55,692 nt of DNA from a virus (taxonomy: Duplodnaviria > Caudoviricetes), in IMG/VR virus record IMGVR_UViG_3300029787_000058, positions 1-55,692 of that record. One strand, 5' to 3'. The position numbers and the translations under genes were made by a program. This document shows positions 4,241-42,407 of the stretch, piece by piece; the stretch's first letter is position 1, and the number at the start of each line of letters is the position of its first letter. The notes below the pieces were generated by a model. The model was given only the letters and a program-made list of their open reading frames with translations, was not told the origin of the DNA and ran no database searches.

Positions 4241-5113
4241 ATGTTACAAGGTTACAACAGTAGAGACGACGAGTCAATGGGAGAAAGAGATTATCTCCGG
4301 GGTATTAAGAAAAAGTTTATGCAAGGTCTTAAATCCAGAAGAGACGAGAGTCGTGGAGAAAATAAAGCAGAAGGAATGCGCCCTAATGATTTTGTCAAGG
4401 CAGAAGCCGGAGCAAAACTAAAGCAGATGTACGGAATGGGAGGAACTATGAAGTATCGCAAGGGTGGCGCTAACCTAGCAATGACTAACAGCGAAGCCGT
4501 AAGAAGCGGACGAGCAGGCAGAGGTGCTGGAGAGCAAGAGTATGGTATGGGTGGAAAGATGGAGTACGAAAAAGGCGGTATGCTAAAGGCTCTACTTGAA
4601 GATCCAAAGCAAAGAGATATGGCAAGAGCCATTCTAAGCGACACCAATACAAAAGCAGTAACTGACGGAAAGGCTGGTCGTTATGAGATGGGCGGTGAGG
4701 TTCCTGTAGTAGAAGAAGAAAAGCAGACTTTCATAATGAGAAGTATGCCAAAGTCCACTGAAGACTATCCGGCTGAAATATACAATGCTTCAATGCCTAT
4801 CCTAAAAGATATGCTTAGAGGGTCAAAACTTGCACCTGAAGATGAGCAGATGGTTGCAGAGTACATTGTAGGAACAGAGGATATTGGTTCTGTAAATCCT
4901 AGATTAAGAGATATGGCAAGAGCCGCTAGACAAAGAGGTATGGACTACCTAAGATCAGAAGCCGGTGGTGAATTTATTATGGACAAGTACTTTGACCAAA
5001 AAACTGGAGAAGAAGTATCTGAAGATTTTATTATGGGTCTTCAAGAAAAAGGCGAAAGTTTTAGACCACTTAGCGACACAGGTGAAGGTAGATATGTTTA
5101 TGAAATAAGATAA
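4241..5113 (+). CDS. Hypothetical virion-internal protein with five YxxGG repeats
   Basis: YGMGG x2, YRKGG, YEKGG, YEMGG. Confidence 0.6.
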   Translation: MLQGYNSRDDESMGERDYLRGIKKKFMQGLKSRRDESRGENKAEGMRPNDFVKAEAGAKLKQMYGMGGTMKYRKGGANLAMTNSEAVRSGRAGRGAGEQEYGMGGKMEYEKGGMLKALLEDPKQRDMARAILSDTNTKAVTDGKAGRYEMGGEVPVVEEEKQTFIMRSMPKSTEDYPAEIYNASMPILKDMLRGSKLAPEDEQMVAEYIVGTEDIGSVNPRLRDMARAARQRGMDYLRSEAGGEFIMDKYFDQKTGEEVSEDFIMGLQEKGESFRPLSDTGEGRYVYEIR

Positions 5114-5133
5114 CTTATATATTTATATAAGAA

Positions 5134-5166
5134 TAAAAAAAGGGGGCTTATGGCCCCCTCTTTTAT
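5134..5166. terminator. Bidirectional intrinsic terminator
   Basis: A-tract, AGGGGGC-ttatg-GCCCCCT stem and T-tract between convergent genes. Confidence 0.85.
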
Positions 5167-5183
5167 TATCTGTGTTTAGGAAT

Positions 5184-25718: not shown

Positions 25719-26219
25719 CTCATGAAATCTTGAGTATGCTCCAAATACTACAGGCCATTCCCGCACCTCTTCAGGTTTATAATGTCCTACAATGTATTCG
25801 TGTTTTGAAGTAAACATAATAAAGACCATCTCATCACAGTCTTCTTTTTGCATTGCTCTTTCATTGGCTTTGAATGAACCTTCAGATGTTTTAATGCTCA
25901 CCTTTCTCACCTGTCCATTATGAACGACCTCAATATCATCGTCATGTTTTATGTCCTTAGTGTTTTTTAGCAATGTGGAAACAGAATAACGAGAATACTG
26001 CGGGGTAATTTCATAATAATATCTAACCAATAACTCTCCTAGAACTCCTACAAATTCAGTGTAGTATTCTCTTGACACCTCTCCTAACAACAGCGACTTC
26101 TTCATCCCTGTTCTTTGTCTGTGCGTTCCGTTATATCTTTCTTTATTAGCCTCTACTCTTCTGTGAGCAATGTCAGCAGCGTATTCCCTAAGATAAGGGG
26201 GAATGTCTACGCGTCTCAT
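25683..26219 (-). CDS. Hypothetical protein, possible PD-(D/E)xK nuclease
   Basis: G.LGE...DDDIEV...VSIKT spacing. Confidence 0.4.
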   Translation of the reverse strand: MRRVDIPPYLREYAADIAHRRVEANKERYNGTHRQRTGMKKSLLLGEVSREYYTEFVGVLGELLVRYYYEITPQYSRYSVSTLLKNTKDIKHDDDIEVVHNGQVRKVSIKTSEGSFKANERAMQKEDCDEMVFIMFTSKHEYIVGHYKPEEVREWPVVFGAYSRFHELVPGQTVTVSE

Positions 26220-27205
26220 GCCAACCCTTTGAGTCTTGTTTCATTAATACCATGAAGATCATACTCTTTTTTGCAATACTCATAAAGATTATTACCAAGA
26301 TCCTCTGCTTGTTCTAGTGTCATCTTACTAACGGCTTCTTTCCATTCGGCAGGAGAGTTGCAAAGCAATCCTGTTTTACCATGAATGATAGACTGCTTGT
26401 AGGGTCTTACATTACTAGCGATGATTGCAGTTTTTGTGAAGCCTGCTTCAACAACCTTTAGATCTGATTTGCATCTGTTAAATTTTGAATCTGCCAAAGG
26501 AGATATAGACACCTCAAACTTTTTATACAGGCTACCATATTCATGAGGTTCTACCGGAGTAATGGGATATTTTGCTCTTAAAAAATCAGAGTATATAGTG
26601 CCTACACCATTGAATGTACCTAGTCTGGTGCAGTATAGTTCATAATCCTCAAACGTCATTCCCAAAACTTTCAAGTCTTCATTGTGTCCGTTGGCTCCCA
26701 GGTATCCAAATCTTACAACACCTTTTGGGTTGTCGTCTTTTTTAATATCTCTCCATTGCTTTTCTTTTTGATAGACCGTATTAGGGACTACGTGAATAGA
26801 AACATCAGGATTAATCATAGCCATTCTGTTCTTTAAATATTCAGAAGGTGTCCATATTTCATCCGCTATTTTTATAGTGTTCAATATGTTTTTCTTTTCT
26901 ACGTTTTCGTAATGTTTTCTAGCAGGATTAGATTTAGGCAGTTCCCAAAAGTCATCATTGTCTAGGATCAATTTAATATTGTTCTTCTTTAAGAACTTTT
27001 TAAACTGTTTGTGATCGGAGACACTACATCTCCTGGAGATTACTAAATTTTTTACCTTACTTAGATCCCATTCTTTAAGTTGATTAAAGTTCTCAAAGTA
27101 ATGGGTGTTCAATCCCTTCTCTTCTTTCATTCTTATGAAAGGAGTAAGTATTCTATGATAATTAATACCGCTTAAACCATCAAGGTATATTAACGTCATC
27201 ATCAT
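26216..27205 (-). CDS. GT-B (GT4-like) glycosyltransferase
   Basis: G.NYHR..P, LDNDDFW, SPL...FNRCKSDLKVVEAG, IIASNV.PY. Confidence 0.85.
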   Translation of the reverse strand: MMMTLIYLDGLSGINYHRILTPFIRMKEEKGLNTHYFENFNQLKEWDLSKVKNLVISRRCSVSDHKQFKKFLKKNNIKLILDNDDFWELPKSNPARKHYENVEKKNILNTIKIADEIWTPSEYLKNRMAMINPDVSIHVVPNTVYQKEKQWRDIKKDDNPKGVVRFGYLGANGHNEDLKVLGMTFEDYELYCTRLGTFNGVGTIYSDFLRAKYPITPVEPHEYGSLYKKFEVSISPLADSKFNRCKSDLKVVEAGFTKTAIIASNVRPYKQSIIHGKTGLLCNSPAEWKEAVSKMTLEQAEDLGNNLYEYCKKEYDLHGINETRLKGLA

Positions 27206-31834: not shown

Positions 31835-32454
31835 TTTTTCGCAGGCTTAACAGCATTATCAAGAAGACTCTTATGTCTATCACCTAATTTAAACATATCC
31901 TCAAGCCTAACGATCGCCTTTGTTCTAAGTTCATTCCTTTCAGGAACATTCTTTCCTTTGATTATATAATCAACTGCTTTAATAACCAACTTCATCTTTT
32001 CATTTTCAGGCATATCCTCTTCAACAGCGATATCCTTAGCGACAGGTGATTTCTTTTTGGCAGGTTTAGATGCAGTCTTTTTACCTGTAATACCTGCTTC
32101 ATCTTTAGCAATAGCAATCTCTACTTCATCTGCCGATGCCATAGATGTGTCGATACCAATAGCCAACATAGCCAATGCTCTACCTACTGCTGATGTTTCG
32201 CAGTTCTCTATATAGGAAGTCTTATTAATATAAGATGCTTCCTGAACTTCATGTGCTAATCCTGTAGATTTAATGATTCCTTCGGAGTTTTTTATAGTAG
32301 TCTTCATTACTACTTCTCCACCATCCATAGAAATTATTTCTGTATCTATCGACCATCCTTTATATTCAGGACTAATTCTAAAATACTTTACTCTCTCAGT
32401 TACTTCAACGTATTGTTTTCCTTTTACGTTGGTGGTTTTAAATTGGTACGCCAT
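31831..32454 (-). CDS. Single-strand annealing protein (Rad52/Sak-like)
   Basis: GKQYVEV.ERV..FR and ENCETSAVGRALA motifs; adjacent to exonuclease. Confidence 0.65.
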   Translation of the reverse strand: MAYQFKTTNVKGKQYVEVTERVKYFRISPEYKGWSIDTEIISMDGGEVVMKTTIKNSEGIIKSTGLAHEVQEASYINKTSYIENCETSAVGRALAMLAIGIDTSMASADEVEIAIAKDEAGITGKKTASKPAKKKSPVAKDIAVEEDMPENEKMKLVIKAVDYIIKGKNVPERNELRTKAIVRLEDMFKLGDRHKSLLDNAVKPAKK

Positions 32455-32496
32455 GGTTTTTATTTTTATAAATTAAAGTTGATACAAGTTACAATG

Positions 32497-32625
32497 TTAA
32501 TTTCTTTTAAACAAATTATACTCTAAATCTTTTGCTATTCCTAAATCTAATTTATCAGGATCGCTGTAATAATTACTCTTAATATGTAACATCCATTCTA
32601 CATAGGACTTTTTTTTCTTTTTCAT
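32497..32625 (-). CDS. Small hypothetical protein
   Basis: Probable start MKKKKKSYVEW at 32625 (ATGA-coupled). Confidence 0.45.
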   Translation of the reverse strand: MKKKKKSYVEWMLHIKSNYYSDPDKLDLGIAKDLEYNLFKRN

Positions 32626-32783
32626 TCTAATAATGATGTAATGAAATTTACTATTGTGTACATTATAAAAAATGGCACACCATATATAACAAGAAATGCG
32701 AAACATTCTAGTAACAGCGATGGCTTTTTACGTGGTTCAAACCTATCAGGTGTATACTCTCTTCCTTTCCAATCTTTTTCCAT
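32622..32783 (-). CDS. Small membrane protein (53 aa, not in track)
   Basis: MEKDWKG...CFAFLVIYGVPFFIMYTIVNFITSLLE*; TAATG/ATGA coupled on both sides. Confidence 0.55.
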   Translation of the reverse strand: MEKDWKGREYTPDRFEPRKKPSLLLECFAFLVIYGVPFFIMYTIVNFITSLLE

Positions 32784-32974
32784 TATGCTATTGTATTAGT
32801 GATAGTATTTACTATCGGTTGATTAAACTTTTTATCTATGAAACGTAACCGCTTCTGCACGTTGTGAACTTCTCCACGAACGATTGCTGAATTCATTGCG
32901 CCTGATAAGGTATAAATAAATTCTAAATCTCGGTTAATGTCCTTGATTATTTCCTCCAATGATTCTTTTTCCAT
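32783..32974 (-). CDS. Hypothetical protein
   Basis: Probable start MEKESLEE at 32974. Confidence 0.55.
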   Translation of the reverse strand: MEKESLEEIIKDINRDLEFIYTLSGAMNSAIVRGEVHNVQKRLRFIDKKFNQPIVNTITNTIA

Positions 32975-32975
32975 G

Positions 32976-33191
32976 TCAAATAGATTTTTTCTTTTCGTAT
33001 TCTCTCTCCCAACATAGAGCAAGGTGTTTCACTTCTCTATTATCTAGCATCAGGGATAACCCATTTGCTTTAATGTATACCGATCCACCTGAATGATGTG
33101 CCGGTATTTTTCTATCCTTTAAATAGACTACTGCTTTTACAGGATGATGGTTTACTTTCCTTTCGGTATGTGTACTTGTGAACTTTTTCAT
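32976..33191 (-). CDS. Hypothetical protein
   Basis: 71-aa ORF in tightly packed early operon. Confidence 0.55.
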   Translation of the reverse strand: MKKFTSTHTERKVNHHPVKAVVYLKDRKIPAHHSGGSVYIKANGLSLMLDNREVKHLALCWEREYEKKKSI

Positions 33192-33193
33192 GC

Positions 33194-33346
33194 CTAATCA
33201 AGTTTATCGTCTAATATGTAGTTAAACTTATTATAGCATTCCTTAGAACAAAACAAGGTGTTTGTTTCCTCTTCACATTCTAAGCAGTAACCGCTAGTGT
33301 CTTCTGTCCAAGGATTTCCTTGGTCTAATCCTTCGTCGTGGTTCAT
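33194..33346 (-). CDS. Small zinc-finger protein (50 aa, not in track)
   Basis: ...YCLECEEETNTLFCSKECY... gives CxxC-x8-CxxxC. Confidence 0.6.
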   Translation of the reverse strand: MNHDEGLDQGNPWTEDTSGYCLECEEETNTLFCSKECYNKFNYILDDKLD

Positions 33347-33348
33347 AA

Positions 33349-33930
33349 TTAATTTCTTACTATTCCCCAAACGATTGCTTGGAATTCATACCCTCGTACA
33401 CCTACCATCTCTGCACATTTTAGTGTTAATTGTTCTAACTGCTTGTACCTGAGTGGTGTCAATCCTGATTCAATAGTCTTGCCGAAGCAGGCTCTTAGAT
33501 GCCATACATCTATGGTCACTTTGCTAGCATCTAGTTCAGCAATGTTTTTTACAAAAGAATAGGTCTTGGGTGATGCCTGATCGATCCCTCTCTCACCTTT
33601 AGCAATCTCAAATGCTTTGTTCTTATTGCTATGGAATGTAGATACCTTGACATCTTCGGGATTCTTACCCTCATTAACCGCTTTTAGAACTGTTCTAGTG
33701 TCAATGATATTTCTCTCCCATTTGTTTCTAGGACTTAGTGCGCTGATTACTTGTGCAACAACAGCGGGATCATAGTCTAATTGCTTTCCCATGTCTATAC
33801 AGATTTGGTTAGCATTCTTGTACCATTGCATACCTTCTTGTGTATGTTGGTCTGTACGTTTTTCGTACATCTCTAGAAGATTCTTTTTTATCTTCCTCTT
33901 GTGATAAGGTGATAGTGATTTGATTTTCAT
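33349..33930 (-). CDS. HhH-glycosylase-like phage protein
   Basis: G..WY, ALSP...W..N, KT.SF..N, VTIDVWH.R, QA..W motifs. Confidence 0.55.
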   Translation of the reverse strand: MKIKSLSPYHKRKIKKNLLEMYEKRTDQHTQEGMQWYKNANQICIDMGKQLDYDPAVVAQVISALSPRNKWERNIIDTRTVLKAVNEGKNPEDVKVSTFHSNKNKAFEIAKGERGIDQASPKTYSFVKNIAELDASKVTIDVWHLRACFGKTIESGLTPLRYKQLEQLTLKCAEMVGVRGYEFQAIVWGIVRN

Positions 33931-33975
33931 AATTAAGGATTTGGTTTTGGTTTCTCGTACGTATATAATATAGGG

Positions 33976-34179
33976 CTAACTTGTCAGTTCATGCAATTCT
34001 GAAGGATTAGTAGTGCCATATCTCTTCTCGTATGTTTTTAACATAGCCATTATTGTATCGTATAGGGCTGAGTCTTCAGGAAGGGACATCCCCTCGTTAC
34101 TTCTCTTTTTCAGAGCAAATAGTTCTTTGTTTAGAACAATCAATGTTTGAATTTCATTTAAATTTTTAGATAAAATCAT
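33976..34179 (-). CDS. Hypothetical early protein
   Basis: 67-aa ORF in operon. Confidence 0.5.
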   Translation of the reverse strand: MILSKNLNEIQTLIVLNKELFALKKRSNEGMSLPEDSALYDTIMAMLKTYEKRYGTTNPSELHELTS

Positions 34180-34286
34180 GATATTATAAGTTTAATTATT
34201 GTATAAATTACTGCAAAGTAAGCAAGAAACATAACAACAATTCCTAAAATACCTACAGCGATCGTCATTCTCGGTCTCAATCTCAT
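34176..34286 (-). CDS. Single-TM micropeptide (36 aa, not in track)
   Basis: MRLRPRMTIAVGILGIVVMFLAYFAVIYTIIKLIIS*; ATGA overlap at both ends. Confidence 0.5.
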   Translation of the reverse strand: MRLRPRMTIAVGILGIVVMFLAYFAVIYTIIKLIIS

Positions 34287-34453
34287 GCATTCATGGCTTT
34301 AACATATTCGTCATACTCTGCAAGAAATTTTTCTTTGTACTTAGGATCAGTCATTGCTAGTGCTAATTCTCTGATCCAATCTTCATCATGCATAAGGCAA
34401 TTATTTCGGTCAACTTCATACATATAGGTTAGCATCTCTTCGATATCCTTCAT
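34283..34453 (-). CDS. Hypothetical early protein (56 aa, not in track)
   Basis: MKDIEEMLTYMYEVDRNN...; ATGA coupled. Confidence 0.55.
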   Translation of the reverse strand: MKDIEEMLTYMYEVDRNNCLMHDEDWIRELALAMTDPKYKEKFLAEYDEYVKAMNA

Positions 34454-34689
34454 AACCCTAAGTGATATTTAAGTGTTCCTATTGCCATCTCATCCTGATA
34501 CATTTCTCTCGCTTGATCTTCAATAGATCTCAGCGTGTACGGCTCAACATCCTCTACTCTATCTAGTAGTTCATTAAAGTAGTCTTGGGCCTCTTCGGTA
34601 TAAGAGCCGTTTAAACGTGCTTTACCTTGGAAGTGTTGATCGACATACTTGCCAACCGCCTCTATGATTTCAATTTGTCTGTCTGTCAT
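34450..34689 (-). CDS. Hypothetical early protein
   Basis: ATGA-coupled ORF. Confidence 0.6.
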   Translation of the reverse strand: MTDRQIEIIEAVGKYVDQHFQGKARLNGSYTEEAQDYFNELLDRVEDVEPYTLRSIEDQAREMYQDEMAIGTLKYHLGL

Positions 34690-34919
34690 GATTTAAAACT
34701 TTTGTTGTATTCATAGTCATCAATTAGACTTTCCAATTGATTTTTATCCTCTAACTCGTATAGATTTAACTGCTTTGCTTCTAGACATCTTCCGATGTAT
34801 GTGCTAGTGCCATTGCCATCATTCCAAATTGTTACGTTAGGAATGTTTGTTTTGCATTCGTATCCGACTCCTCTTCGAGTATCGAAATACCTTACTGAAA
34901 TTACTTTTAAGTCCTTCAT
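34686..34919 (-). CDS. Hypothetical early protein
   Basis: VRYFDTRRGVGYECKT..IWNDGNG; ATGA coupled. Confidence 0.65.
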   Translation of the reverse strand: MKDLKVISVRYFDTRRGVGYECKTNIPNVTIWNDGNGTSTYIGRCLEAKQLNLYELEDKNQLESLIDDYEYNKSFKS

Positions 34920-35224
34920 AAGTTCTGCGCTTTAATAAATTTAACTACGCTATCGTATGCATCAATATTATCGTGGTTTAAGATTGCTAAATCAATAGCC
35001 CCCATTAAACTCCTCCATTCGTTTGATTCCGGATATCGCCTTCTCGACTTTCGACATTTCCATATCACCGGCATAATCCAATCCCATGAAGTATCCCACA
35101 TTGGGTCTTCTGTTACATAATCATCCACTTCTGTGGAGTAACATACTCTGCCATCATCATAGAATTCGCATTCCATGAACTTAGCAATTAACATATCGGT
35201 TTTATCTAAACTAACTGAATTCAT
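34916..35224 (-). CDS. Hypothetical early protein
   Basis: LIAKFM...SWDWIMPV..K...VVKFI pattern. Confidence 0.65.
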   Translation of the reverse strand: MNSVSLDKTDMLIAKFMECEFYDDGRVCYSTEVDDYVTEDPMWDTSWDWIMPVIWKCRKSRRRYPESNEWRSLMGAIDLAILNHDNIDAYDSVVKFIKAQNL

Positions 35225-35227
35225 AAT

Positions 35228-35494
35228 CTATTTAACTTTAAAATTGAATGTTCGCACTTTGCGGAACGTGTTATCAGGATTAATACTCGTCAACTTGACT
35301 ACCTGTAATCCGGCACAGGTCATTCTCTTCTCTGCAATCTCTTCTCCACCAAAACAGCGGAAGAATTCTTGCGTATCTAGATTAGTAATTTTATCGAAAG
35401 TATCCCAATCAATGGTACTTACTTTTCTTTTCTCGGACATCTCGCCAATGGTTTGGCTTGTCTCGATCATCTCAATATCAAAATTTTGTTTCAT
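35228..35494 (-). CDS. Hypothetical early protein
   Basis: 88-aa ORF with early leader CCAAATCCAAACC-ATG. Confidence 0.65.
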   Translation of the reverse strand: MKQNFDIEMIETSQTIGEMSEKRKVSTIDWDTFDKITNLDTQEFFRCFGGEEIAEKRMTCAGLQVVKLTSINPDNTFRKVRTFNFKVK

Positions 35495-35570
35495 GGTTTG
35501 GATTTGGTTTTTGGTTCATGTACGTATATAAATTAGCAAACATTTTTTTGCATTCCAACAATTATTTTTT
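35495..35570 (-). promoter_or_regulatory. Repeated early promoter/leader (also 33931-33975 and 37670-37745)
   Basis: Minus strand TA..TT.TATACGTAC...AACC..AAATCC...ATG in three places; two copies have an upstream TTGGAA...GCAAAAAA. Confidence 0.65.
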
Positions 35571-35593
35571 TTCCCATAGGGAACTTTTTAAGG

Positions 35594-35779
35594 TTAACCT
35601 AGGTCGAACGTATAATGTAAGTCTTCAGCCATTCCGCTAACTTTTTCCAGTAAATAAATGGCATCTTCCGCAGGCCGGATAAGTTCTTCCCGAATATTTA
35701 AATCGGCTAGTGTTATTTTTTCGTCTTCTAATTTTTCAAGTAGTTCGACTAAGGTTGCAAGATCAGATGTAGTATTCAT
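35594..35779 (-). CDS. Acidic early protein, tandem paralog A
   Basis: LVELLEKLEDEKITLADL.I...I.P...AI.LL.KV shared with 35883-36062. Confidence 0.7.
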   Translation of the reverse strand: MNTTSDLATLVELLEKLEDEKITLADLNIREELIRPAEDAIYLLEKVSGMAEDLHYTFDLG

Positions 35780-35799
35780 AATTAATTTATTTAAGGTTT

Positions 35800-35847
35800 C
35801 CGTTTCATCCTTTTGGAATCGTCAGCCAAGGTTGCACCTTGATACGG
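35800..35847 (-). ncRNA. Type III hammerhead ribozyme
   Basis: CCGU-A^-UCAAGGU GCA ACCUUGG-CUGACGA-U UCC AAAA GGA U-GAAACGG. Confidence 0.85.
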
Positions 35848-35882
35848 TAGCAGTTTAATATCATGCTCAGGATAAGAAATAC

Positions 35883-36062
35883 TTATTTAAGGTTAACTTT
35901 TTGAAGTAAAGTGATGGCCTCTTGTACAGGGTCAATAATGTCATGCTGAATATCTAAATCGGCTATTGTTATTTCACCATCATCTAATTTTTCAAGTAGA
36001 TCAACTAAGTTGTCAAGATCTGTTATTCCTAATTCTAAATTTCCAAAATCAATAGTATTCAT
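35883..36062 (-). CDS. Acidic early protein, tandem paralog B
   Basis: Probable start MNTIDF at 36062; the track's start at 36101 lies inside the ribozyme. Confidence 0.7.
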   Translation of the reverse strand: MNTIDFGNLELGITDLDNLVDLLEKLDDGEITIADLDIQHDIIDPVQEAITLLQKVNLK

Positions 36063-36080
36063 AATAAATTTATTTAAGAT

Positions 36081-36132
36081 TTCCGTTTCATGCTTTTGCA
36101 ATCATCAGTTAAGGTTACACCTTAATACGGAA
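36081..36132 (-). ncRNA. Type III hammerhead ribozyme
   Basis: UUCCGU-A^-UUAAGGU GUA ACCUUAA-CUGAUGA-U UGC AAAA GCA U-GAAACGGAA; compensatory changes relative to the 35800 copy. Confidence 0.88.
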
Positions 36133-36163
36133 GCAGTTTTACATCTTGCTTAGGATAGATGGT

Positions 36164-36469
36164 CTATGACCAGACTCTCATTCCGCTTTGCTTGAACCAT
36201 TCATCATCCGTTAGGATGTCTTCGGGGTCTTTTAGTTGTTCCCACATTGACTTTAAATCGGAAACATCCTTTTGATTCTGCGTAAAGTTGTCGACAAAGT
36301 CAGATCGGTAACCATACCAAGACTCTGCAACGTGAATTTGAGAACATTCTGAATAAACACTAACATATGGTTCTTTTAGACTGCACCACCATCCGTTATC
36401 TTCTTCATCCCATAAGTCTTCGACTAGAGGATGATTTTCTATCAATTGAATTAATTTTGCTTTTCTCAT
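36164..36469 (-). CDS. Hypothetical early protein
   Basis: 101-aa acidic, Trp-rich ORF. Confidence 0.6.
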   Translation of the reverse strand: MRKAKLIQLIENHPLVEDLWDEEDNGWWCSLKEPYVSVYSECSQIHVAESWYGYRSDFVDNFTQNQKDVSDLKSMWEQLKDPEDILTDDEWFKQSGMRVWS

Positions 36470-36480
36470 GATTTAATAAA

Positions 36481-36927
36481 TTAAAGGTTAATTGAACTTA
36501 AAGGTTTCATCTCTTCTTGATAATCAAATGCTATAAAGGCTTTTATAGTTGAATCCTCTACACAGCGATAACCAAGATATATCAGATGCAAAGCCATATG
36601 GTTATAATAATTTTCAATTATTTTGTCCTCTAGGTCTTCGGACAAATTGTCTGTCTCTAAAAGAGATTTAGCCAATGAAAGTACATCACCATTATAGATT
36701 GGTAAATCAATAATACTTGGTAAGCCACTTAGCCATTCGGCTAGATTCTTTTGAATTGGAAGGTGGCAGTTATTCTTATGAATAAATTCCTTTAGGAATG
36801 TCGTGAACAAAAACTCCATCTTTTCAGATGGTGTATCTGTCTTCACTTGGTACTCTGTACCATCGATCTTGTCTAGTAAATAAGTATAGATATTATTCCT
36901 ATACTGCGAAGAATTTGTCTTTAACAT
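36481..36927 (-). CDS. Hypothetical early protein
   Basis: EWLSGLPS.I.LP.YN pattern. Confidence 0.65.
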   Translation of the reverse strand: MLKTNSSQYRNNIYTYLLDKIDGTEYQVKTDTPSEKMEFLFTTFLKEFIHKNNCHLPIQKNLAEWLSGLPSIIDLPIYNGDVLSLAKSLLETDNLSEDLEDKIIENYYNHMALHLIYLGYRCVEDSTIKAFIAFDYQEEMKPLSSINL

Positions 36928-36947
36928 GGTTATGGATTTTTAAGTTT

Positions 36948-37001
36948 AACCTGACCTCCTAAAGGAGGTTTCGTCCCATCTCAGGGTACTCATCAGAGGT
37001 T
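36948..37001 (-). ncRNA. Type I hammerhead ribozyme
   Basis: AACCU-CUGAUGA-GUACCC UGAGAU GGGAC-GAAA-CCUCC UUUA GGAGG-UC^-AGGUU; canonical core and GUC triplet. Confidence 0.92.
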
Positions 37002-37316
37002 TTATGAATTGCTTATCCTAATTTTTATCGGCAAATTATAGAGATCTTTATATTCAGAATCATTGAGTATATAGTCAAGTAATATTTGTCTGTGTCTATG
37101 AGATAATGAAGCATAGAATCTCATAAATCCTAGAGTATTATCATCTGATTCATCACAGAACTGATTGAACTTTTTTAGGAAGTGATCGGTATTAAAGCAT
37201 ATTCCAGTTGATCCAACATTTCCGTATCTTGGGAAGGCTTTCTCTATGAAATCATACTCATAGTTAAAAGCATACATTAAGACTAGATTATAGTTATCGA
37301 AGGTTTTCTTTGTCAT
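37002..37316 (-). CDS. Hypothetical early protein
   Basis: 104-aa ORF ending at the ribozyme. Confidence 0.6.
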   Translation of the reverse strand: MTKKTFDNYNLVLMYAFNYEYDFIEKAFPRYGNVGSTGICFNTDHFLKKFNQFCDESDDNTLGFMRFYASLSHRHRQILLDYILNDSEYKDLYNLPIKIRISNS

Positions 37317-37342
37317 GATATTTAATTTTACAGGTTATTAAT

Positions 37343-37669
37343 TTACTTGAGATTATTTTTTAGAAACCTTTTCAAGGTTCTAGAGATTAGAGTGAGATCA
37401 TATTTTAACTCGTCAAGTTCAGAGAACTTATTTACGTTATATCTTTTTCTGAATGAAAAATTGTCCATACCTCCTTCGGAGTCTATGTAAACAAATTGGT
37501 TATTCGTTCGAATAAGGTTTACTTCTAAGTAAGAGGGCCAAGTTGATCCTCCGTAGGAGCAAGGAATTTCACTAAAGGAGTCTTCGTGTTCTTTATATAC
37601 TCTTACTAATTCTTTAGCAGTGTTAACTCTCTTGAGTAATGTAGTAGATATGGTTCTTTTGTTTTTCAT
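37343..37669 (-). CDS. Hypothetical early protein (first of early operon)
   Basis: 108-aa ORF downstream of early promoter at about 37700-37745. Confidence 0.6.
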   Translation of the reverse strand: MKNKRTISTTLLKRVNTAKELVRVYKEHEDSFSEIPCSYGGSTWPSYLEVNLIRTNNQFVYIDSEGGMDNFSFRKRYNVNKFSELDELKYDLTLISRTLKRFLKNNLK

Positions 37670-37955
37670 GGTTTGGATTTTGTGGTTCGTCTTTCGTACG
37701 TATACAATTTAGCACCGCTTTTTTGCCATTTCCAAAAAAAATTTGCAAATAATTTTCTTACGTAGTAAAAAAGTTTTTCATCCAGTTTTGGGGCAGTCTT
37801 GAGCCTCGTACGTAATCAATATCACTTTGAAGAATGATCAAGTCTAGACACAATCTTGATTCATGACACGTACCTCTAACTTGTTAAACAAGTCAAACAA
37901 TGTGTCCCCTCCTCTGGAGGGATAGGTGTTTTCGGTTTGGTGGGAGGTTGATTGT

Positions 37956-38021
37956 TCGCACCCTCCTCAGGACTGGTCGAATTTTTCAGGCTGTCTTCGA
38001 CAGGTGGTGTCGCACCCTCCT
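37956..38021. repeat. 12-bp direct repeat TCGCACCCTCCT in GC-rich non-coding island
   Basis: Copies at 37956-37967 and 38010-38021. Confidence 0.8.
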
Positions 38022-38160
38022 ACGTGGATACCCACTGCCTTCGCGGGGAAACGCCTAAACCTTGCGCGCGTTTCGGCAGGAAAGGCACCCCCCATCGAAC
38101 TGGTTTGGGTTTCGGATCTCTCGGCTGACCGCGTGTATATATATATAATCCCCCCGCTGC

Positions 38161-38385
38161 TTATTTCTGAGAAATTTTGTGGACTTCTCTGAGTTGTTTA
38201 AGTTCTTCTTTTTTTTCTTTGTACTTCTTTTTAAGTGTTGAGTACTTCCGCTGTAAAATCAATATTTGGGAATATTGCTTTTTAAGCCATGGGGACATAC
38301 TAACGACACCGAGCGCAAAAAATAAAGAACACACTGTGATCATAATAAGGAACTCAGGGTTTTCGTTTATTTGCTCCAGGGTCAT
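38161..38385 (-). CDS. TM + basic coiled-coil protein
   Basis: N-terminal hydrophobic helix and Lys-rich tail. Confidence 0.55.
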   Translation of the reverse strand: MTLEQINENPEFLIMITVCSLFFALGVVSMSPWLKKQYSQILILQRKYSTLKKKYKEKKEELKQLREVHKISQK

Positions 38386-38615
38386 TTGTCCTGGTGTAGT
38401 AAAAGTGATTTACCTAGGGTGGGGTTTATCTTGGATATTGCCCGATAGATTATCCGGCTTCTTTTCTTTACTTCTGCCTTTTCTGTTTTGGTGCTGTCTT
38501 GTCCAAGGTTCTGATATTGTACAGCGTCCATGTACAGAAGTTTGTCTACTCTATACTTATCTGACTGGTGTATACAGTTCACGGTTTTCTCTATAAGTTG
38601 TTCATTAAATTTCAT
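38382..38615 (-). CDS. Hypothetical protein
   Basis: D.LL..DA..Y.NLG.DST..E...VK..SR.IY.AI pattern. Confidence 0.65.
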   Translation of the reverse strand: MKFNEQLIEKTVNCIHQSDKYRVDKLLYMDAVQYQNLGQDSTKTEKAEVKKRSRIIYRAISKINPTLGKSLLLHQDK

Positions 38616-38848
38616 AAGTCCTCTGTCAATTAATTACACTAAAAAAAATTATGCAAAGTAATGGCCCTTGCACACTGAGTTTCGTCTTTTGATTGTCGAG
38701 ATGTTCGTCGTTGAACGACATAATCTATAATATGCCTTTGGCTTATAGATGTAGTCTCTGTTCGTATTGTCTACACAAAGACGTGTCTGAAGGTACAACA
38801 AAAAAAGTTAAGATGCAACACTTGTTACAACATACAATACCAACTCTT

Positions 38849-39004
38849 CTAGAACGGTAACTTGCTGTCTCTGTTGAGATAGATTCCTAAAACAACACAT
38901 ATGATACCTAACAGCGACTTCATGTCGTGACACATAAAGAGCATCCCGCCAAAAATCATAAGTGCTTCGGGAAGTATTTTTTTAATTTCATCTAGTATAC
39001 TCAT
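38849..39004 (-). CDS. Small two-TM protein (51 aa, not in track)
   Basis: MSILDEIKKILPEALMIFGGMLFMCHDMKSLLGIICVVLGIYLNRDSKLPF*. Confidence 0.5.
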   Translation of the reverse strand: MSILDEIKKILPEALMIFGGMLFMCHDMKSLLGIICVVLGIYLNRDSKLPF

Positions 39005-39084
39005 TCTTTATCTATATTAAGTATAATAAAAAAGAAAGCGACTGACGCTACTACCAGGCCCCAAACAAAGCCCAGGAAAAACAT
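39001..39084 (-). CDS. Single-TM micropeptide (27 aa, not in track)
   Basis: MFFLGFVWGLVVASVAFFFIILNIDKE*; TAATG and ATGA coupling. Confidence 0.5.
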   Translation of the reverse strand: MFFLGFVWGLVVASVAFFFIILNIDKE

Positions 39085-39263
39085 TAGGCTGTTCTTGCGG
39101 CCTTTCTTCCGGCAGCAGCCTTCTTAGCCATCCCTGCCTTTCCGTATTTTTTAACGCCAGCAGTGTAAGCAATCTTTTGTGCTGCTTCTTTCGATTGACC
39201 TTTCTTCATAAGTTGAGCAACTAACTTTTTAAATGCTCCACCTTTATCAAACATCTTTTTCAT
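39084..39263 (-). CDS. Small K/A-rich basic protein (59 aa, not in track)
   Basis: MKKMFDKGGAFKKLVAQL...KKYGKAGMAKKAAAGRKAARTA*. Confidence 0.7.
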   Translation of the reverse strand: MKKMFDKGGAFKKLVAQLMKKGQSKEAAQKIAYTAGVKKYGKAGMAKKAAAGRKAARTA

Positions 39264-39268
39264 AATTA

Positions 39269-39511
39269 TTATTTTATTGTAGCCTCAAGGAGTCCACGTT
39301 CGTATTCTAGTTGTTTCTCTATGGATATTATTCTATCCTCAAGCCTGTTTATAACCTGAACCTTGTTGTCAAGTCTTTCATGTACCATAGTTAACTCTGT
39401 TTTCAAAGAGGTGAACTCAGCGAATAGACCTCCCGCTGTAAATATTGCGATGACAAACCATAAAAAGATCTGCCAGTTTTTCACAAAGGGGTTATATGCT
39501 GTGTTACTCAT
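39269..39511 (-). CDS. Small membrane protein, paralog of 92-328
   Basis: 63/70 amino-acid identity with many synonymous differences. Confidence 0.85.
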   Translation of the reverse strand: MSNTAYNPFVKNWQIFLWFVIAIFTAGGLFAEFTSLKTELTMVHERLDNKVQVINRLEDRIISIEKQLEYERGLLEATIK

Positions 39512-40139
39512 TTCCTTTAGGATACATATTCATATCTGGATCTGACATACCGTCAGGTAATATCCCTGCGAAACTTAACTCTGTTACAATCTCTTCTGCA
39601 TCTCCTGGCTTTAGATTAGGGAGAACACCTAGAATAGATCCAACAAAGTTATTTGCTACGTCTTCTCCTGTAGTTCTTAGTGCATCATAGACTCCACGCA
39701 GCCCATTTTTTTCATATCCTTCTTTTAAGGATGAAGGTAAATGTTTTACTTCGTGACCAGCACCCAATATATTTGCGGCAGCCACCCCTGCGGCATCTCC
39801 AACTATGTTTGTTATGATGTTAGGATTATAACCTCCGGTAATCATATTACTTACGTTCTGTGCTGTATAAGTACCAGCCAATGCGTGACGTATGTTATCA
39901 GGCTGATCACCATCTATACTACCAGACTCAACTAAACTCTCAGCAAAGTTGAATGCTTTCTCTTTGGGTTTACCTAAAAATTGATTTACTTGTTCTTCAC
40001 GAGTGGGTGCTCCTTCAGGAGGAGATATAAAATCCCCTATCCTATCTACGACCTTAGATGGAGTCCGGTACTTTTTTATTTCTCTTTTTACAGCGGAAAG
40101 TTTACCGCCATCTTGAAGGGGTCTAAACCTGTAGTTCAT
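39504..40139 (-). CDS. Protein with D..RH / HE / D..NN..G toxin-like domain
   Basis: DNIRHALAG, GAGHE, EDVANNFVG; N-terminal LQDGG. Confidence 0.5.
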   Translation of the reverse strand: MNYRFRPLQDGGKLSAVKREIKKYRTPSKVVDRIGDFISPPEGAPTREEQVNQFLGKPKEKAFNFAESLVESGSIDGDQPDNIRHALAGTYTAQNVSNMITGGYNPNIITNIVGDAAGVAAANILGAGHEVKHLPSSLKEGYEKNGLRGVYDALRTTGEDVANNFVGSILGVLPNLKPGDAEEIVTELSFAGILPDGMSDPDMNMYPKGNE

Positions 40140-40147
40140 TAATCTCC

Positions 40148-40321
40148 TTATCCACGAGTTTCAAAGGCGATGCCATTCAATACTAATAACTCTCTTCCGT
40201 CTCTACTTTTTAATACTTGAGAAAAAGCAGGAACATCTTTAGCCATGGGAGCGAATACTTCTTTACCAGAAGATAAATTTTTATTCTCTGCAAATGGAAC
40301 TTGCTTACGATACTTTGCCAT
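40148..40321 (-). CDS. Small hypothetical protein (57 aa, not in track)
   Basis: MAKYRKQVPFAENK...GIAFETRG*; TAATG-coupled to endolysin. Confidence 0.55.
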   Translation of the reverse strand: MAKYRKQVPFAENKNLSSGKEVFAPMAKDVPAFSQVLKSRDGRELLVLNGIAFETRG

Positions 40322-40989
40322 TATAACAATTTTAACATTTCTATTATCTCTGGTTGAGGGAATATATCTGACTTATCCTTTCGCACAGAGTTGTGTGTAA
40401 AGATACCACTTTCTCCTCGTAATGCTTTCTTTGAAACTCCCCACATATCTCTAGCATTGTATGTTTTATCAATACCATAATGATCTATCCAATAACGCAA
40501 TAGGTTTTCTACGCTACGTATTTGCTCATCTGAATATCTATGATAATGTCGCTTTCCTTTGTAAGGTTCTTCCAGGCTACACACCTCTTCTTTTGGAACC
40601 TCCCTGTTTACGTAGTTAAAAAACTTACCACTCTTTTCTTCTAAACCACCCCATGCACAGAGTTCTATACCTATAGACTTTTTATCTAATGGCATATAGT
40701 CGAGGTTGTAAGATTCGAATACCTCTCTTTTTATTCCAAGATGGTATGCCCAGTATTTACTAGAAAACGCCTGAACAATTTTACCATCCCCTTCTTTGGC
40801 TCCGGTGTTTGATATGCACACACAAGTAGCGATCCTACCTCTGCTATCATTGTTCCAGTGATTTACTGTGTTTACACCACTAGCATTTCCTGCTGTATGG
40901 TGTAGGTATACCTGATTCTTCTCCTGGGCATCTTTAATATATTCATTAGAAGAAAGTTTAACCTGTAATATGTCGTCAAGAAAACTCAT
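40321..40989 (-). CDS. Endolysin, N-acetylmuramoyl-L-alanine amidase (Amidase_2)
   Basis: YLHHTAG, WAYHLG, SIGIEL, THNSVRKDKSD..P. Confidence 0.88.
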   Translation of the reverse strand: MSFLDDILQVKLSSNEYIKDAQEKNQVYLHHTAGNASGVNTVNHWNNDSRGRIATCVCISNTGAKEGDGKIVQAFSSKYWAYHLGIKREVFESYNLDYMPLDKKSIGIELCAWGGLEEKSGKFFNYVNREVPKEEVCSLEEPYKGKRHYHRYSDEQIRSVENLLRYWIDHYGIDKTYNARDMWGVSKKALRGESGIFTHNSVRKDKSDIFPQPEIIEMLKLL

Positions 40990-41015
40990 AGTGTCTCATT
41001 TGGTTTTATAATGAT

Positions 41016-41032
41016 CAAATCTATTAACTTTG
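41016..41032. promoter_or_regulatory. Back-to-back divergent -7 promoters
   Basis: TAGATTTG on - strand (41016-41023) and TAACTTTG on + strand (41025-41032). Confidence 0.65.
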
Positions 41033-41053
41033 TTTATACATACACATACTGAA

Positions 41054-41278
41054 ATGAGCCTAATAGATATTTTTAAAGACAACAACGATTATAACGAGAA
41101 GACCATAATAGGTTTTTTGTCATTCGCTGTTATGATAATTGTAATGATAGTAGATCTAGTAACAGGATGGATAGGTAAAGACCTGGTAGTCAATGAGTTC
41201 ATCTATAATTCTTTTCTATTTGTAACCCTTGGATCATTTGGGATTGCAGGATTAGAAAAATTCTCACAAAGAAAATGA
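41054..41278 (+). CDS. Two-TM holin-like protein
   Basis: Two hydrophobic helices and charged C-terminus; divergent from endolysin. Confidence 0.55.
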   Translation: MSLIDIFKDNNDYNEKTIIGFLSFAVMIIVMIVDLVTGWIGKDLVVNEFIYNSFLFVTLGSFGIAGLEKFSQRK

Positions 41279-41703
41279 AGTTAAAGAAAACAAAAGCCAG
41301 TAAGAAGGTAGACGCCCCTGAAGGATTTCACTGGATGACAGAGAATGGAAGACACTTTTTAATGAAGGGAGACTATAAGCCACACGCAGGCGCTAGTCCA
41401 TCTGCTCCATTTAGAGTTGTTACCCATGACAAAGACATGAAGGCTGACATGGGAATGAAGGTAAAGGCCGCTAAAGAAGCAAAGAGCCGACTCAAGACTA
41501 TGGAATACGAAAAGGGAGGCAAAGTAAAAAAAAAGTCCAAAGTAAACGAGGCAGGAAACTATACTAAGCCTAGTCTTCGCAAAAGAATATTCAACAGAAT
41601 CAAGGCTGGAACTAAGGGTGGCAACGCAGGACAATGGTCTGCAAGGAAAGCCCAGATGTTAGCCAAAGCATATAAAGCCGCTGGAGGTGGATACACAAGT
41701 TAA
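41275..41703 (+). CDS. Basic protein with DUF5872-like C-terminal half
   Basis: NYTKP.LR..I...IKAG.KGG..GQWSARKAQMLA..YK.AGGGY; N-terminal AP.GFHWM; MEYEKGG. Confidence 0.6.
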   Translation: MKLKKTKASKKVDAPEGFHWMTENGRHFLMKGDYKPHAGASPSAPFRVVTHDKDMKADMGMKVKAAKEAKSRLKTMEYEKGGKVKKKSKVNEAGNYTKPSLRKRIFNRIKAGTKGGNAGQWSARKAQMLAKAYKAAGGGYTS

Positions 41704-41948
41704 TGGCACTAAAGAAATCACAAAAATCATTAAAGAACTGGACCAGTCAGAAGTGGAGAACTAAGTCTGGGAAAAAGTCATCAGAGACCGGAGAGAGGTA
41801 TCTCCCTGAAGCAGCAATAGAAAGCCTGAGCGACGAAGAGTACGCTGCAACCACTAGGGCTAAAAGAGCAGGATCTAAAAAAGGAAAGCAATTTGTTGCT
41901 CAACCTAAGAAGATCGCAAAGAAAACTAAGAGGTACAGAACTAACTAA
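41703..41948 (+). CDS. Basic protein (continuation of DUF5872-like module)
   Basis: Q.SL..WT.QKW.T...ERYLP..A...LS..E.AAT..AKR. Confidence 0.6.
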   Translation: MALKKSQKSLKNWTSQKWRTKSGKKSSETGERYLPEAAIESLSDEEYAATTRAKRAGSKKGKQFVAQPKKIAKKTKRYRTN

Positions 41949-42375
41949 AGGCTTCCTCTCCATTCATTTTTCTATATAAACGAGTAACGACTAGACGACC
42001 TCTTTGGGTTATAGCATATCTAACCCTGTAGTTATACTTAGTCTCCTCTCTAAAGAAAGATTCATCTACAGATCCACTGGGAGTTAATTTATCAAAGTGT
42101 TTATACACCCATCCATCACTCACCATCTTATGTATAAGTCTCTTTCGCATTCGTGACTCGCTCTTATTCAACGCTTTAGCAATATGTGCTATAGTAAAAA
42201 ACTCATAGTCATAAATAAACATTAAGAAATCAAGTTCTGCTCTGCCGAGTTGATGATTCTCTTTTGCATCTATATACAGAAAATGTAGGTTCTTTAGATT
42301 AGTATACAAAACCTCCTTAGATTCTTTTTTAGAAAACTCTCTAAATAGTTTCTTTCGGCTTGTGTAACTTTTCAT
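41941..42375 (-). CDS. Winged-helix (MarR-like) transcription regulator
   Basis: ELDFLMFIY...TIAHIAKAL...KMVSDGWV...YAITQRGR. Confidence 0.65.
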   Translation of the reverse strand: MKSYTSRKKLFREFSKKESKEVLYTNLKNLHFLYIDAKENHQLGRAELDFLMFIYDYEFFTIAHIAKALNKSESRMRKRLIHKMVSDGWVYKHFDKLTPSGSVDESFFREETKYNYRVRYAITQRGRLVVTRLYRKMNGEEAFS

Positions 42376-42383
42376 GATATAGG

Positions 42384-42391
42384 TATCTTTG
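42384..42391 (+). promoter_or_regulatory. -7 promoter TATCTTTG
   Basis: Consensus match upstream of 42408. Confidence 0.6.
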
Positions 42392-42407
42392 TTTCAAAAG
42401 TAATAAT

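Follow-up and report, generated by a model that had tools for sequence, protein, structure and literature searches.

A genuine type I hammerhead ribozyme lies on the minus strand of a phage genome at 36948..37001, and we put at roughly three in four the probability that it forms part of a transcript of small genes and cuts itself after C36953 without the help of a protein. The window analysed here is an entire virus record of 55,692 bases with a completeness rating of 98%, and all coordinates refer to it. A first-pass annotation of the same DNA had proposed three self-cleaving RNAs in this region, with the type I element differing in topology from the other two and having been acquired separately. 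Motifs of three hammerheads are present, the other two being type III copies at 36130..36083 (copy A) and 35847..35800 (copy B) on the same strand, and the difference in topology is borne out. Separate acquisition fits as well, in that the type I element is a member of one widely spread phage family and the type III elements are members of another.

The CUGAUGA/GAAA core, the three stems and the GUC triplet named in the first-pass annotation were all located at 37001..36948 on the minus strand. Stem I is open and consists of five base pairs (37001-36997 with 36952-36948), and the TAA stop codon (37004-37002) of the upstream ORF, which encodes 104 aa (37002..37316, minus strand) and has no family match, abuts it directly, so that a terminating ribosome would cover part of the ribozyme. 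The core segment CUGAUGA (C3-A9, 36996-36990) is canonical and leads into the stem II hairpin (36989-36973), made up of a G-C pair, a U-A pair, a bulged A, three C-G pairs and a loop of six nucleotides; its closing pair G10.1-C11.1 (G36989-C36973) is the one that the class requires. The GAAA segment follows at 36972-36969 (G12, A13 and A14 with A15.1), and A36969 pairs with U36954 (A15.1-U16.1) as one of the six base pairs of the stem III hairpin (36969-36954), which is closed by a loop of four nucleotides. C17 of the GUC cleavage triplet (N-U-H) is at 36953, and the predicted cut between 36953 and 36952 leaves an A-rich leader of 25 nt (36928..36952), its first 5 nt being the 3' strand of stem I, directly ahead of the ATG (36927-36925) of the downstream ORF of 148 aa (36481..36927, minus strand; PHROG 11100, unknown function). 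The element fills the gap between stop codon and leader, and the leader has the length, as had been claimed. Stem I is open and stems II and III are loop-closed, which is the type I topology, and all hammerhead core positions are canonical; judged from its sequence by the defining features of the class, this is a genuine hammerhead.

The pattern CTGANGA..CGAAA occurs three times in the window compared with 0.83 expected, and when the full descriptor with stems of at least 5, 2 and 6 bp was applied to the whole window on both strands, an equal motif was obtained in 1 of 300 dinucleotide-preserving shuffles. The minimum free energy fold of the isolated 54-nt RNA is the hammerhead secondary structure, at -15.9 kcal/mol; with 45 nt of flank on each side, the minimum free energy fold differs from the hammerhead. 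Inspection by eye for a tertiary contact between loop II and stem I revealed no conserved pairing of loop II with the flank, and in many members of the type I family stem I is bordered by A-rich sequence on both sides. Three further formal matches on the window were rejected. The first, at 37974..37891 (minus strand), would be a fourth hammerhead with stems of 4, 2 and 4 bp, and only 5% of shuffles contain an equal; its CUGAGGA core and its GAAA are mutated in the related contigs L002 and L028 amid conserved surroundings. The weak matches at 5015-5102 (plus strand) and 35568-35654 (minus strand) are at chance level, relaxed thresholds giving on average 1.3 matches per shuffle.

Two viral contigs reached through the downstream 148-aa protein, L001 and L002, supplied the first relatives of the type I element. 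The ribozyme of L001 is identical to that of the window. L002 is about 79% identical to the window over the surrounding DNA and carries CUGAAGA (N7 changed from U to A), a stem II pair swapped from C-G to U-A, and a stem III rebuilt as 4 bp closed by a GAAA loop; the element of L028 resembles it in the N7 change, the stem II swap and the rebuilt stem III. In L004, where the genes flanking the element are unrelated to those of the window, the core reads CUGACGA, stem III is an unrelated helix of 7 bp, and three pairs of stem II show compensated changes that are compatible only with the bulged-A register. A search pattern in which just the core and 4 bp of stem I were fixed matched 28 stretches of IMG/VR, and covariance model R1 was built from 18 of the sequences found in this way, the window element among them. 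On the window with filters off, R1 scores the type I element at 70.3 bits and the next match at 14.7 bits, and it gave 52 matches in 32 sources.

The family alignment has 39 distinct rows; it was fitted to the structure of the model, and most of its members were gathered by the pattern of core and 4-bp stem I. In it, 95.7% of the cells pair compared with 68.1% after shuffling; pairing drops to 21-39% when the partners are slid by 1-3 columns, and 14 of the 16 pairs show changes on both sides. Positions C3-A9 except N7 are invariant in all 38 rows with letters there and G12-A15.1 in all 39, a conservation that is, as for stem I, partly by construction because the pattern used to gather the members fixes those positions. 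Since the alignment is model-fitted and its members are partly core-selected, the covariation in stems II and III is given most weight. The G10.1-C11.1 pair is GC in 38 of 38 rows, N7 is U in 27, A in 4, C in 4 and G in 3, and H17 is C in 35, U in 3, A in 1 and never G; as read from the aligned sequences, variation in the family is confined to positions where hammerheads tolerate change. A search of one genome each for 185,579 bacterial and archaeal species gave no match to the type I pattern, and R1 had none in the Flavobacterium phage vB_FspP_elemoE_6-9C; neither R1 nor the type III model R2 described below matched MW202828 or Maribacter phage Panino. Three short IMG/VR contigs of 3.0-3.7 kb (L006, L007 and L008) carry a type I element with the stem II of the window and a different, G+C-rich stem I. 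A circular or concatemeric nature is suggested for L006 and L007, each of which starts with a partial copy of its own ribozyme.

Rfam reports none of the three hammerheads, there being no match in the window at gathering score. For the type I element the best sub-threshold match is the RAGATH-1 hammerhead RF03152 (26.7 bits against a cut-off of 56.3), followed by a partial match to Hammerhead_3, RF00008 (19.4 bits against 48.5); it scores below the gathering threshold of all the hammerhead families RF00163, RF00008, RF02275-7 and RF03152, and is by Rfam's own criterion a member of no Rfam family. It shares with RF03152 the type I topology, the open stem I of 5 bp and the CUGAUGAG..CGAAAC..GUC core. 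However, the sole counterpart of the 5' hairpin of RF03152 is a weak stem of 4 bp within the upstream ORF, the sequence of this stem is not kept in L001 or L002, and the sequence of stem I differs from that of RF03152. The type III copies had no Rfam hammerhead match even at E up to 10 (411 nt), and searches at E up to 10 with the whole window, 32400-42400 and 37650-38200 gave no twister, pistol, hatchet, HDV-like or other ribozyme. A chance look-alike or a decayed, inactive relic could also go without an Rfam match at gathering score, and the match at 37974..37891 demonstrates that formal hits in this DNA can be spurious; such an origin of the type I element is nevertheless very unlikely, considering that an equal motif appeared in just one of the 300 shuffles, that the relatives show compensatory changes, and that R1 separates the element, itself one of the 18 sequences in the model, from the next match by 70 against 14.7 bits.

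The gene string that contains the type I element also contains the two type III copies, at distances of about 0.8 and 1.1 kb further downstream. Copy A (36083..36130, minus strand; CUGAUGA, GUA) has its predicted cut at 36126/36125 and copy B (35800..35847, minus strand; CUGACGA) at 35843/35842. Both have a 4-bp stem III, the GUA triplet, a stem I hairpin of 7 bp, GAAA and a 3-bp stem II with an AAAA loop, in which a U10.1/U11.1 mismatch takes the place of the G-C pair; between the two copies, stems I and II show compensated changes. Both escaped the initial descriptor on account of the U-U mismatch at the opening of stem II and were found by reading the intergenic gaps. A short hairpin of 5 bp (36131..36151, minus strand) is placed directly upstream of stem III of copy A, and relatives have a stronger, G+C-rich hairpin at this position. 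The type III core pattern was found in 20 IMG/VR stretches. In a MAFFT alignment of 19 type III sequences 99.2% of the cells pair and 8 of the 14 pairs change on both sides; model R2, built from this alignment with both window copies included, scores copy A at 74.8 bits and copy B at 72.0 bits, finds only these two in the window, and gives 9.2 bits to the next match. Among bacterial and archaeal species genomes the type III pattern had four matches, all in metagenome-assembled bins, and both subfamilies look essentially phage-borne. A canonical type III hammerhead, unannotated, is present in the cultured Flavobacterium phage vB_FspP_elemoE_6-9C (NC_055854.1, 18097-18153, minus strand), in the gap between the divergent genes gp58 and gp59 and 19 nt before the ATG of gp59.

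The U-U opening of stem II, which is expected to weaken the type III neighbours, is one of several features that could speak for ribozymes that are slow, or are switched by Mg2+, upstream translation, a factor of phage or host, or an antisense RNA, and that tune the ratio of gene products. Stem I of the type I element is short and open and has no recognisable tertiary contact, and translation of the upstream ORF, whose stop codon abuts the ribozyme, should compete with folding; regulated cleavage has been raised for slower phage variants in the compared part of Perreault et al. 2011 (PLoS Comput Biol, PMC3088659). A ligand-binding or switch structure is not visible, however, and the isolated element folds directly into the hammerhead, and we regard conditional cleavage as quite unlikely. 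Unaided self-cleavage of a transcript continues to be the reading that we prefer.

The window encodes a large terminase, a portal protein, a tail fibre, a primase/helicase and an exonuclease. The large terminase shares 40-48% identity with the terminases of Flavobacterium, Cellulophaga and Maribacter phages and with that of an uncultured podovirus, and marine and seawater metagenome runs from several studies hold DNA near-identical to the window. Megablast of 34000-40000 against deposited genomes gave no close phage relatives, nor did blastn with either ribozyme return a hit, which is to be expected of queries as short as 60 nt. Elsewhere in the genome, a 775-aa protein (741-3068, plus strand) combines glycosyltransferase-like and 2OG-Fe(II) oxygenase-like parts, and together with a separate glycosyltransferase gene (26216-27205, minus strand) may constitute a DNA-modification module. 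At 5128-5171, following the ORF 4241-5113, a strong G+C hairpin between an A-run and a T-run gave several Rfam matches below threshold on both strands; it resembles an intrinsic terminator that acts in both directions. Gene orientation is minus-strand from about 42375 down to 25355. Small ORFs, the majority without a family match, form a string from about 42400 to 33000, with replication and recombination genes following; the string probably comprises early or accessory genes, and 'early' is, as we infer, a reasonable label for it. Among 24 listed runs, the only RNA-library ones with DNA of the window are two that contain about 5% of the sampled words, and they gave three assembled contig pieces on the window; the ribozyme sites are outside all three pieces.

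Going down the minus strand, the order is the 104-aa ORF, the type I hammerhead, the 148-aa ORF, an ORF of 101 aa (36164..36469, no family match) as the last gene before copy A, the hairpin with copy A, an ORF of 59 aa (35883..36062) with its ATG 20 nt after copy A, copy B, and an ORF of 61 aa (35594..35779) with its ATG 20 nt after copy B; next comes a gap that contains a promoter-like motif on the same strand. The three co-oriented hammerheads within 35800-37001 bound a two-gene block and a one-gene block. The 59-aa and 61-aa proteins are paralogs, indicating that ribozyme and gene were duplicated as a unit, and the tandem duplication (35594-36130, minus strand) comprises hairpin, type III ribozyme, 20-nt leader and small gene. 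A TTG at 36101, called by program as the start of the 59-aa ORF (35883-36101), falls inside copy A; this call is probably wrong and the ATG at 36062, which fits the spacing of the family, the true start.

The motif in the gap after the 61-aa ORF is one of three copies of TATATACGTAC on the minus strand (37696-37706, 35520-35530 and 33957-33967; two exact, one with a single mismatch). Each is located about 25-30 nt before an ATG and is followed by an A/C-rich leader resembling those left by the ribozymes, and the copy at 37696-37706 is kept in relatives; the motif looks like a phage promoter or transcript start. Three promoter-like motifs within the gene string count against the preferred explanation as regards the extent of a single transcript. 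The copies at 37696-37706 and 35520-35530 lie outside the stretch with the three ribozymes.

The region 37670-38160 (minus strand), between the ORFs 38161-38385 and 37343-37669, consists of 491 nt without a convincing ORF. The first 260 nt or so are rich in G+C and contain an AT run and an 11-mer that is repeated twice. In L001, L002 and L028 the region is clearly more conserved than the genes on either side, and inspection by eye showed no codon periodicity. No Rfam family matches it, its fold z-score is -0.14, and a repeat-based scan with it returned only close relatives and two unrelated tandem repeats. An RNA-library contig of 268 nt covers 37954-38221. It may represent a replication origin, a regulatory region or an RNA of unknown kind.

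A survey of ribozyme positions in related genomes, which the first-pass annotation had put forward as a check, brought out a regular order of stop codon, ribozyme, leader and ATG and arrays of up to five copies. Counting ORFs of 35 codons or more, an ATG-led ORF begins 10-40 nt after 26 of the 42 distinct type I and 36 of the 39 distinct type III ribozymes, compared with 577 of 5000 random positions in the same DNA. The median distance from ribozyme to ATG is 22 nt for type I and 21 nt for type III (interquartile range 20-23). Where an upstream ORF was found, its stop codon lies at -8 to +10 nt of the type I element in 20 of 35 cases; for type III the median is 35 nt upstream of the ribozyme, and a G+C-rich hairpin abutting stem III usually occupies this space. 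Most leaders are A/U-rich and lack a Shine-Dalgarno sequence, with AGGAGG seen in a few contigs. Both families thus have a fixed layout of stop codon, ribozyme, A/U-rich leader of about 20 nt and ATG, and this stop and start spacing is a matter of direct observation, as are the motif, its covariation and its strand. Type III arrays have five copies each in L039 and L036 and type I arrays four copies each in L022 and L013; mixed arrays are found in L004 (three type I and one type III) and in L051 (one type III and four type I). The copies within each contig are co-oriented and a few hundred bases apart.

It is precisely at the ribozymes that close relatives differ in gene content: the two type III copies of the window correspond to one in L001, in L002 one type III copy is followed by an unrelated 62-aa gene and the 101-aa ORF is absent, and in L028 an unrelated 59-aa gene stands upstream of the type I element. 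Taken with the tandem duplication of type III ribozyme and small gene that produced the 59-aa and 61-aa paralogs, and with the unrelated genes that adjoin both ribozyme families in many contigs, this might mean that the elements persist by travelling with, or marking the joints of, cassettes of accessory genes, RNA cleavage being incidental. We hold this to be unlikely. A recombination joint needs no intact catalytic core, while the invariant core and covarying stems point to selection on the folded RNA and the constant distance to the start codon speaks for a function in expression. An association with cassette boundaries is in any case compatible with transcript processing, which we retain as the main reading and which is supported, as far as sequence can tell, by the agreement in strand between the ribozymes and the flanking genes.

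From the anatomy of the elements and what is established for the hammerhead class, we infer that the RNA is cut in vivo, that the genes are co-transcribed, and that stability and translation are affected, as follows. Once made, the type I RNA would fold into a three-helix junction and cut after C36953, so that a polycistronic early transcript would be divided into gene-sized pieces independently of protein. The upstream fragment with the ORF 37002-37316 would end in a 2',3'-cyclic phosphate and keep nearly the whole folded ribozyme as a 3' cap, and the downstream fragment would begin with a 5'-OH and the unstructured, A-rich 25-nt leader ahead of the 148-aa ORF. Type III geometry is the opposite: the ribozyme would be retained as a 5' structure of the downstream piece, 20 nt before the ATG, and the upstream piece would have the hairpin and four paired nucleotides at its 3' end. 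Three cuts would yield one piece with two genes (148 and 101 aa), one with a single gene (59 aa) and one starting with the 61-aa gene. Irrespective of what precedes it, every downstream gene would be given a short leader of standard form, and each piece could decay independently of the others. In phage T7, sites for RNase III, a host protein, lie between the cistrons of the early mRNA, and cutting there gives separate mRNAs with defined ends; RiboJ is a synthetic, engineered ribozyme insulator. By analogy, the arrangement in the window may likewise provide separate mRNAs and a 5' leader independent of the upstream sequence, but the element here is natural and self-contained.

Clustered phage hammerheads have previously been proposed to cut long transcripts into gene-length mRNAs, and three tandem arrangements gave the expected products on in vitro transcription, as described in the part of Perreault et al. 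2011 (PMC3088659) that was compared with the window. The processing idea is therefore already published, and the arrangement described here adds nothing new in kind. As in those clusters, hammerheads of mixed type flank single genes or short, varied gene blocks on the coding strand, and the natural stem II variant with U10.1-U11.1 described there is that of the two type III copies of the window. The examples in the compared text, however, are mostly prophages of cultured bacteria, whereas the window is from an uncultured marine phage, and the ATG spacing of about 20 nt and the abutting stop codon of the type I family are absent from that text. The fixed spacing and the two marine-phage families were not found in the literature searched, outside of which many journals lie, and the supplementary alignments of Perreault et al. 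2011 may hold the families. According to the portion of a 2019 review (PMC6765202) considered here, the purpose of bacterial and phage hammerheads is still undefined.

The fixed spacing allows a further, tentative suggestion, namely that the ribozymes act as insulators of expression gene by gene, placed such that each gene has an unstructured A/U leader of about 20-25 nt, with cleavage needed for efficient translation. The standard leader would be set by cleavage in type I and by the 3' edge of the ribozyme in type III. Many of the phages concerned apparently infect Bacteroidota and have leaders without a Shine-Dalgarno sequence. Type I hammerheads have been reported in the 5' UTRs of fungal and plant RNA viruses, where self-cleavage is essential for translation initiation, according to the section of Lopez-Galiano et al. 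2026 (NAR, PMC13725137) considered here. As in the viruses described in that section, a type I hammerhead is found just upstream of an ORF; the hosts there are eukaryotic, translation is cap-independent and the genomes are RNA, in contrast to the DNA genome and bacterial host here. This report and the fixed spacing to the ATG make a role linked to translation worth testing, even if we consider dependence of translation on cleavage possible rather than probable.

Our results present a clean and compact case, with three ribozymes of two topologies within 1.2 kb, each between a stop codon and a short leader, and assign them to two large, phage-restricted families of hammerheads, neither of which Rfam reports at any of these sites. 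The functional interpretation is plausible. The regularity of the layout turns the purpose of phage hammerheads into a concrete question about translation start and mRNA ends, and the related type III element in a cultured Flavobacterium phage makes the question of their role testable at the bench. If the ribozymes do insulate the expression of individual genes, ribozyme, leader and gene would together be a portable unit whose expression survives duplication or exchange between phages, and the arrangement would be a bacterial counterpart of the ribozyme-dependent translation of RNA mycoviruses.
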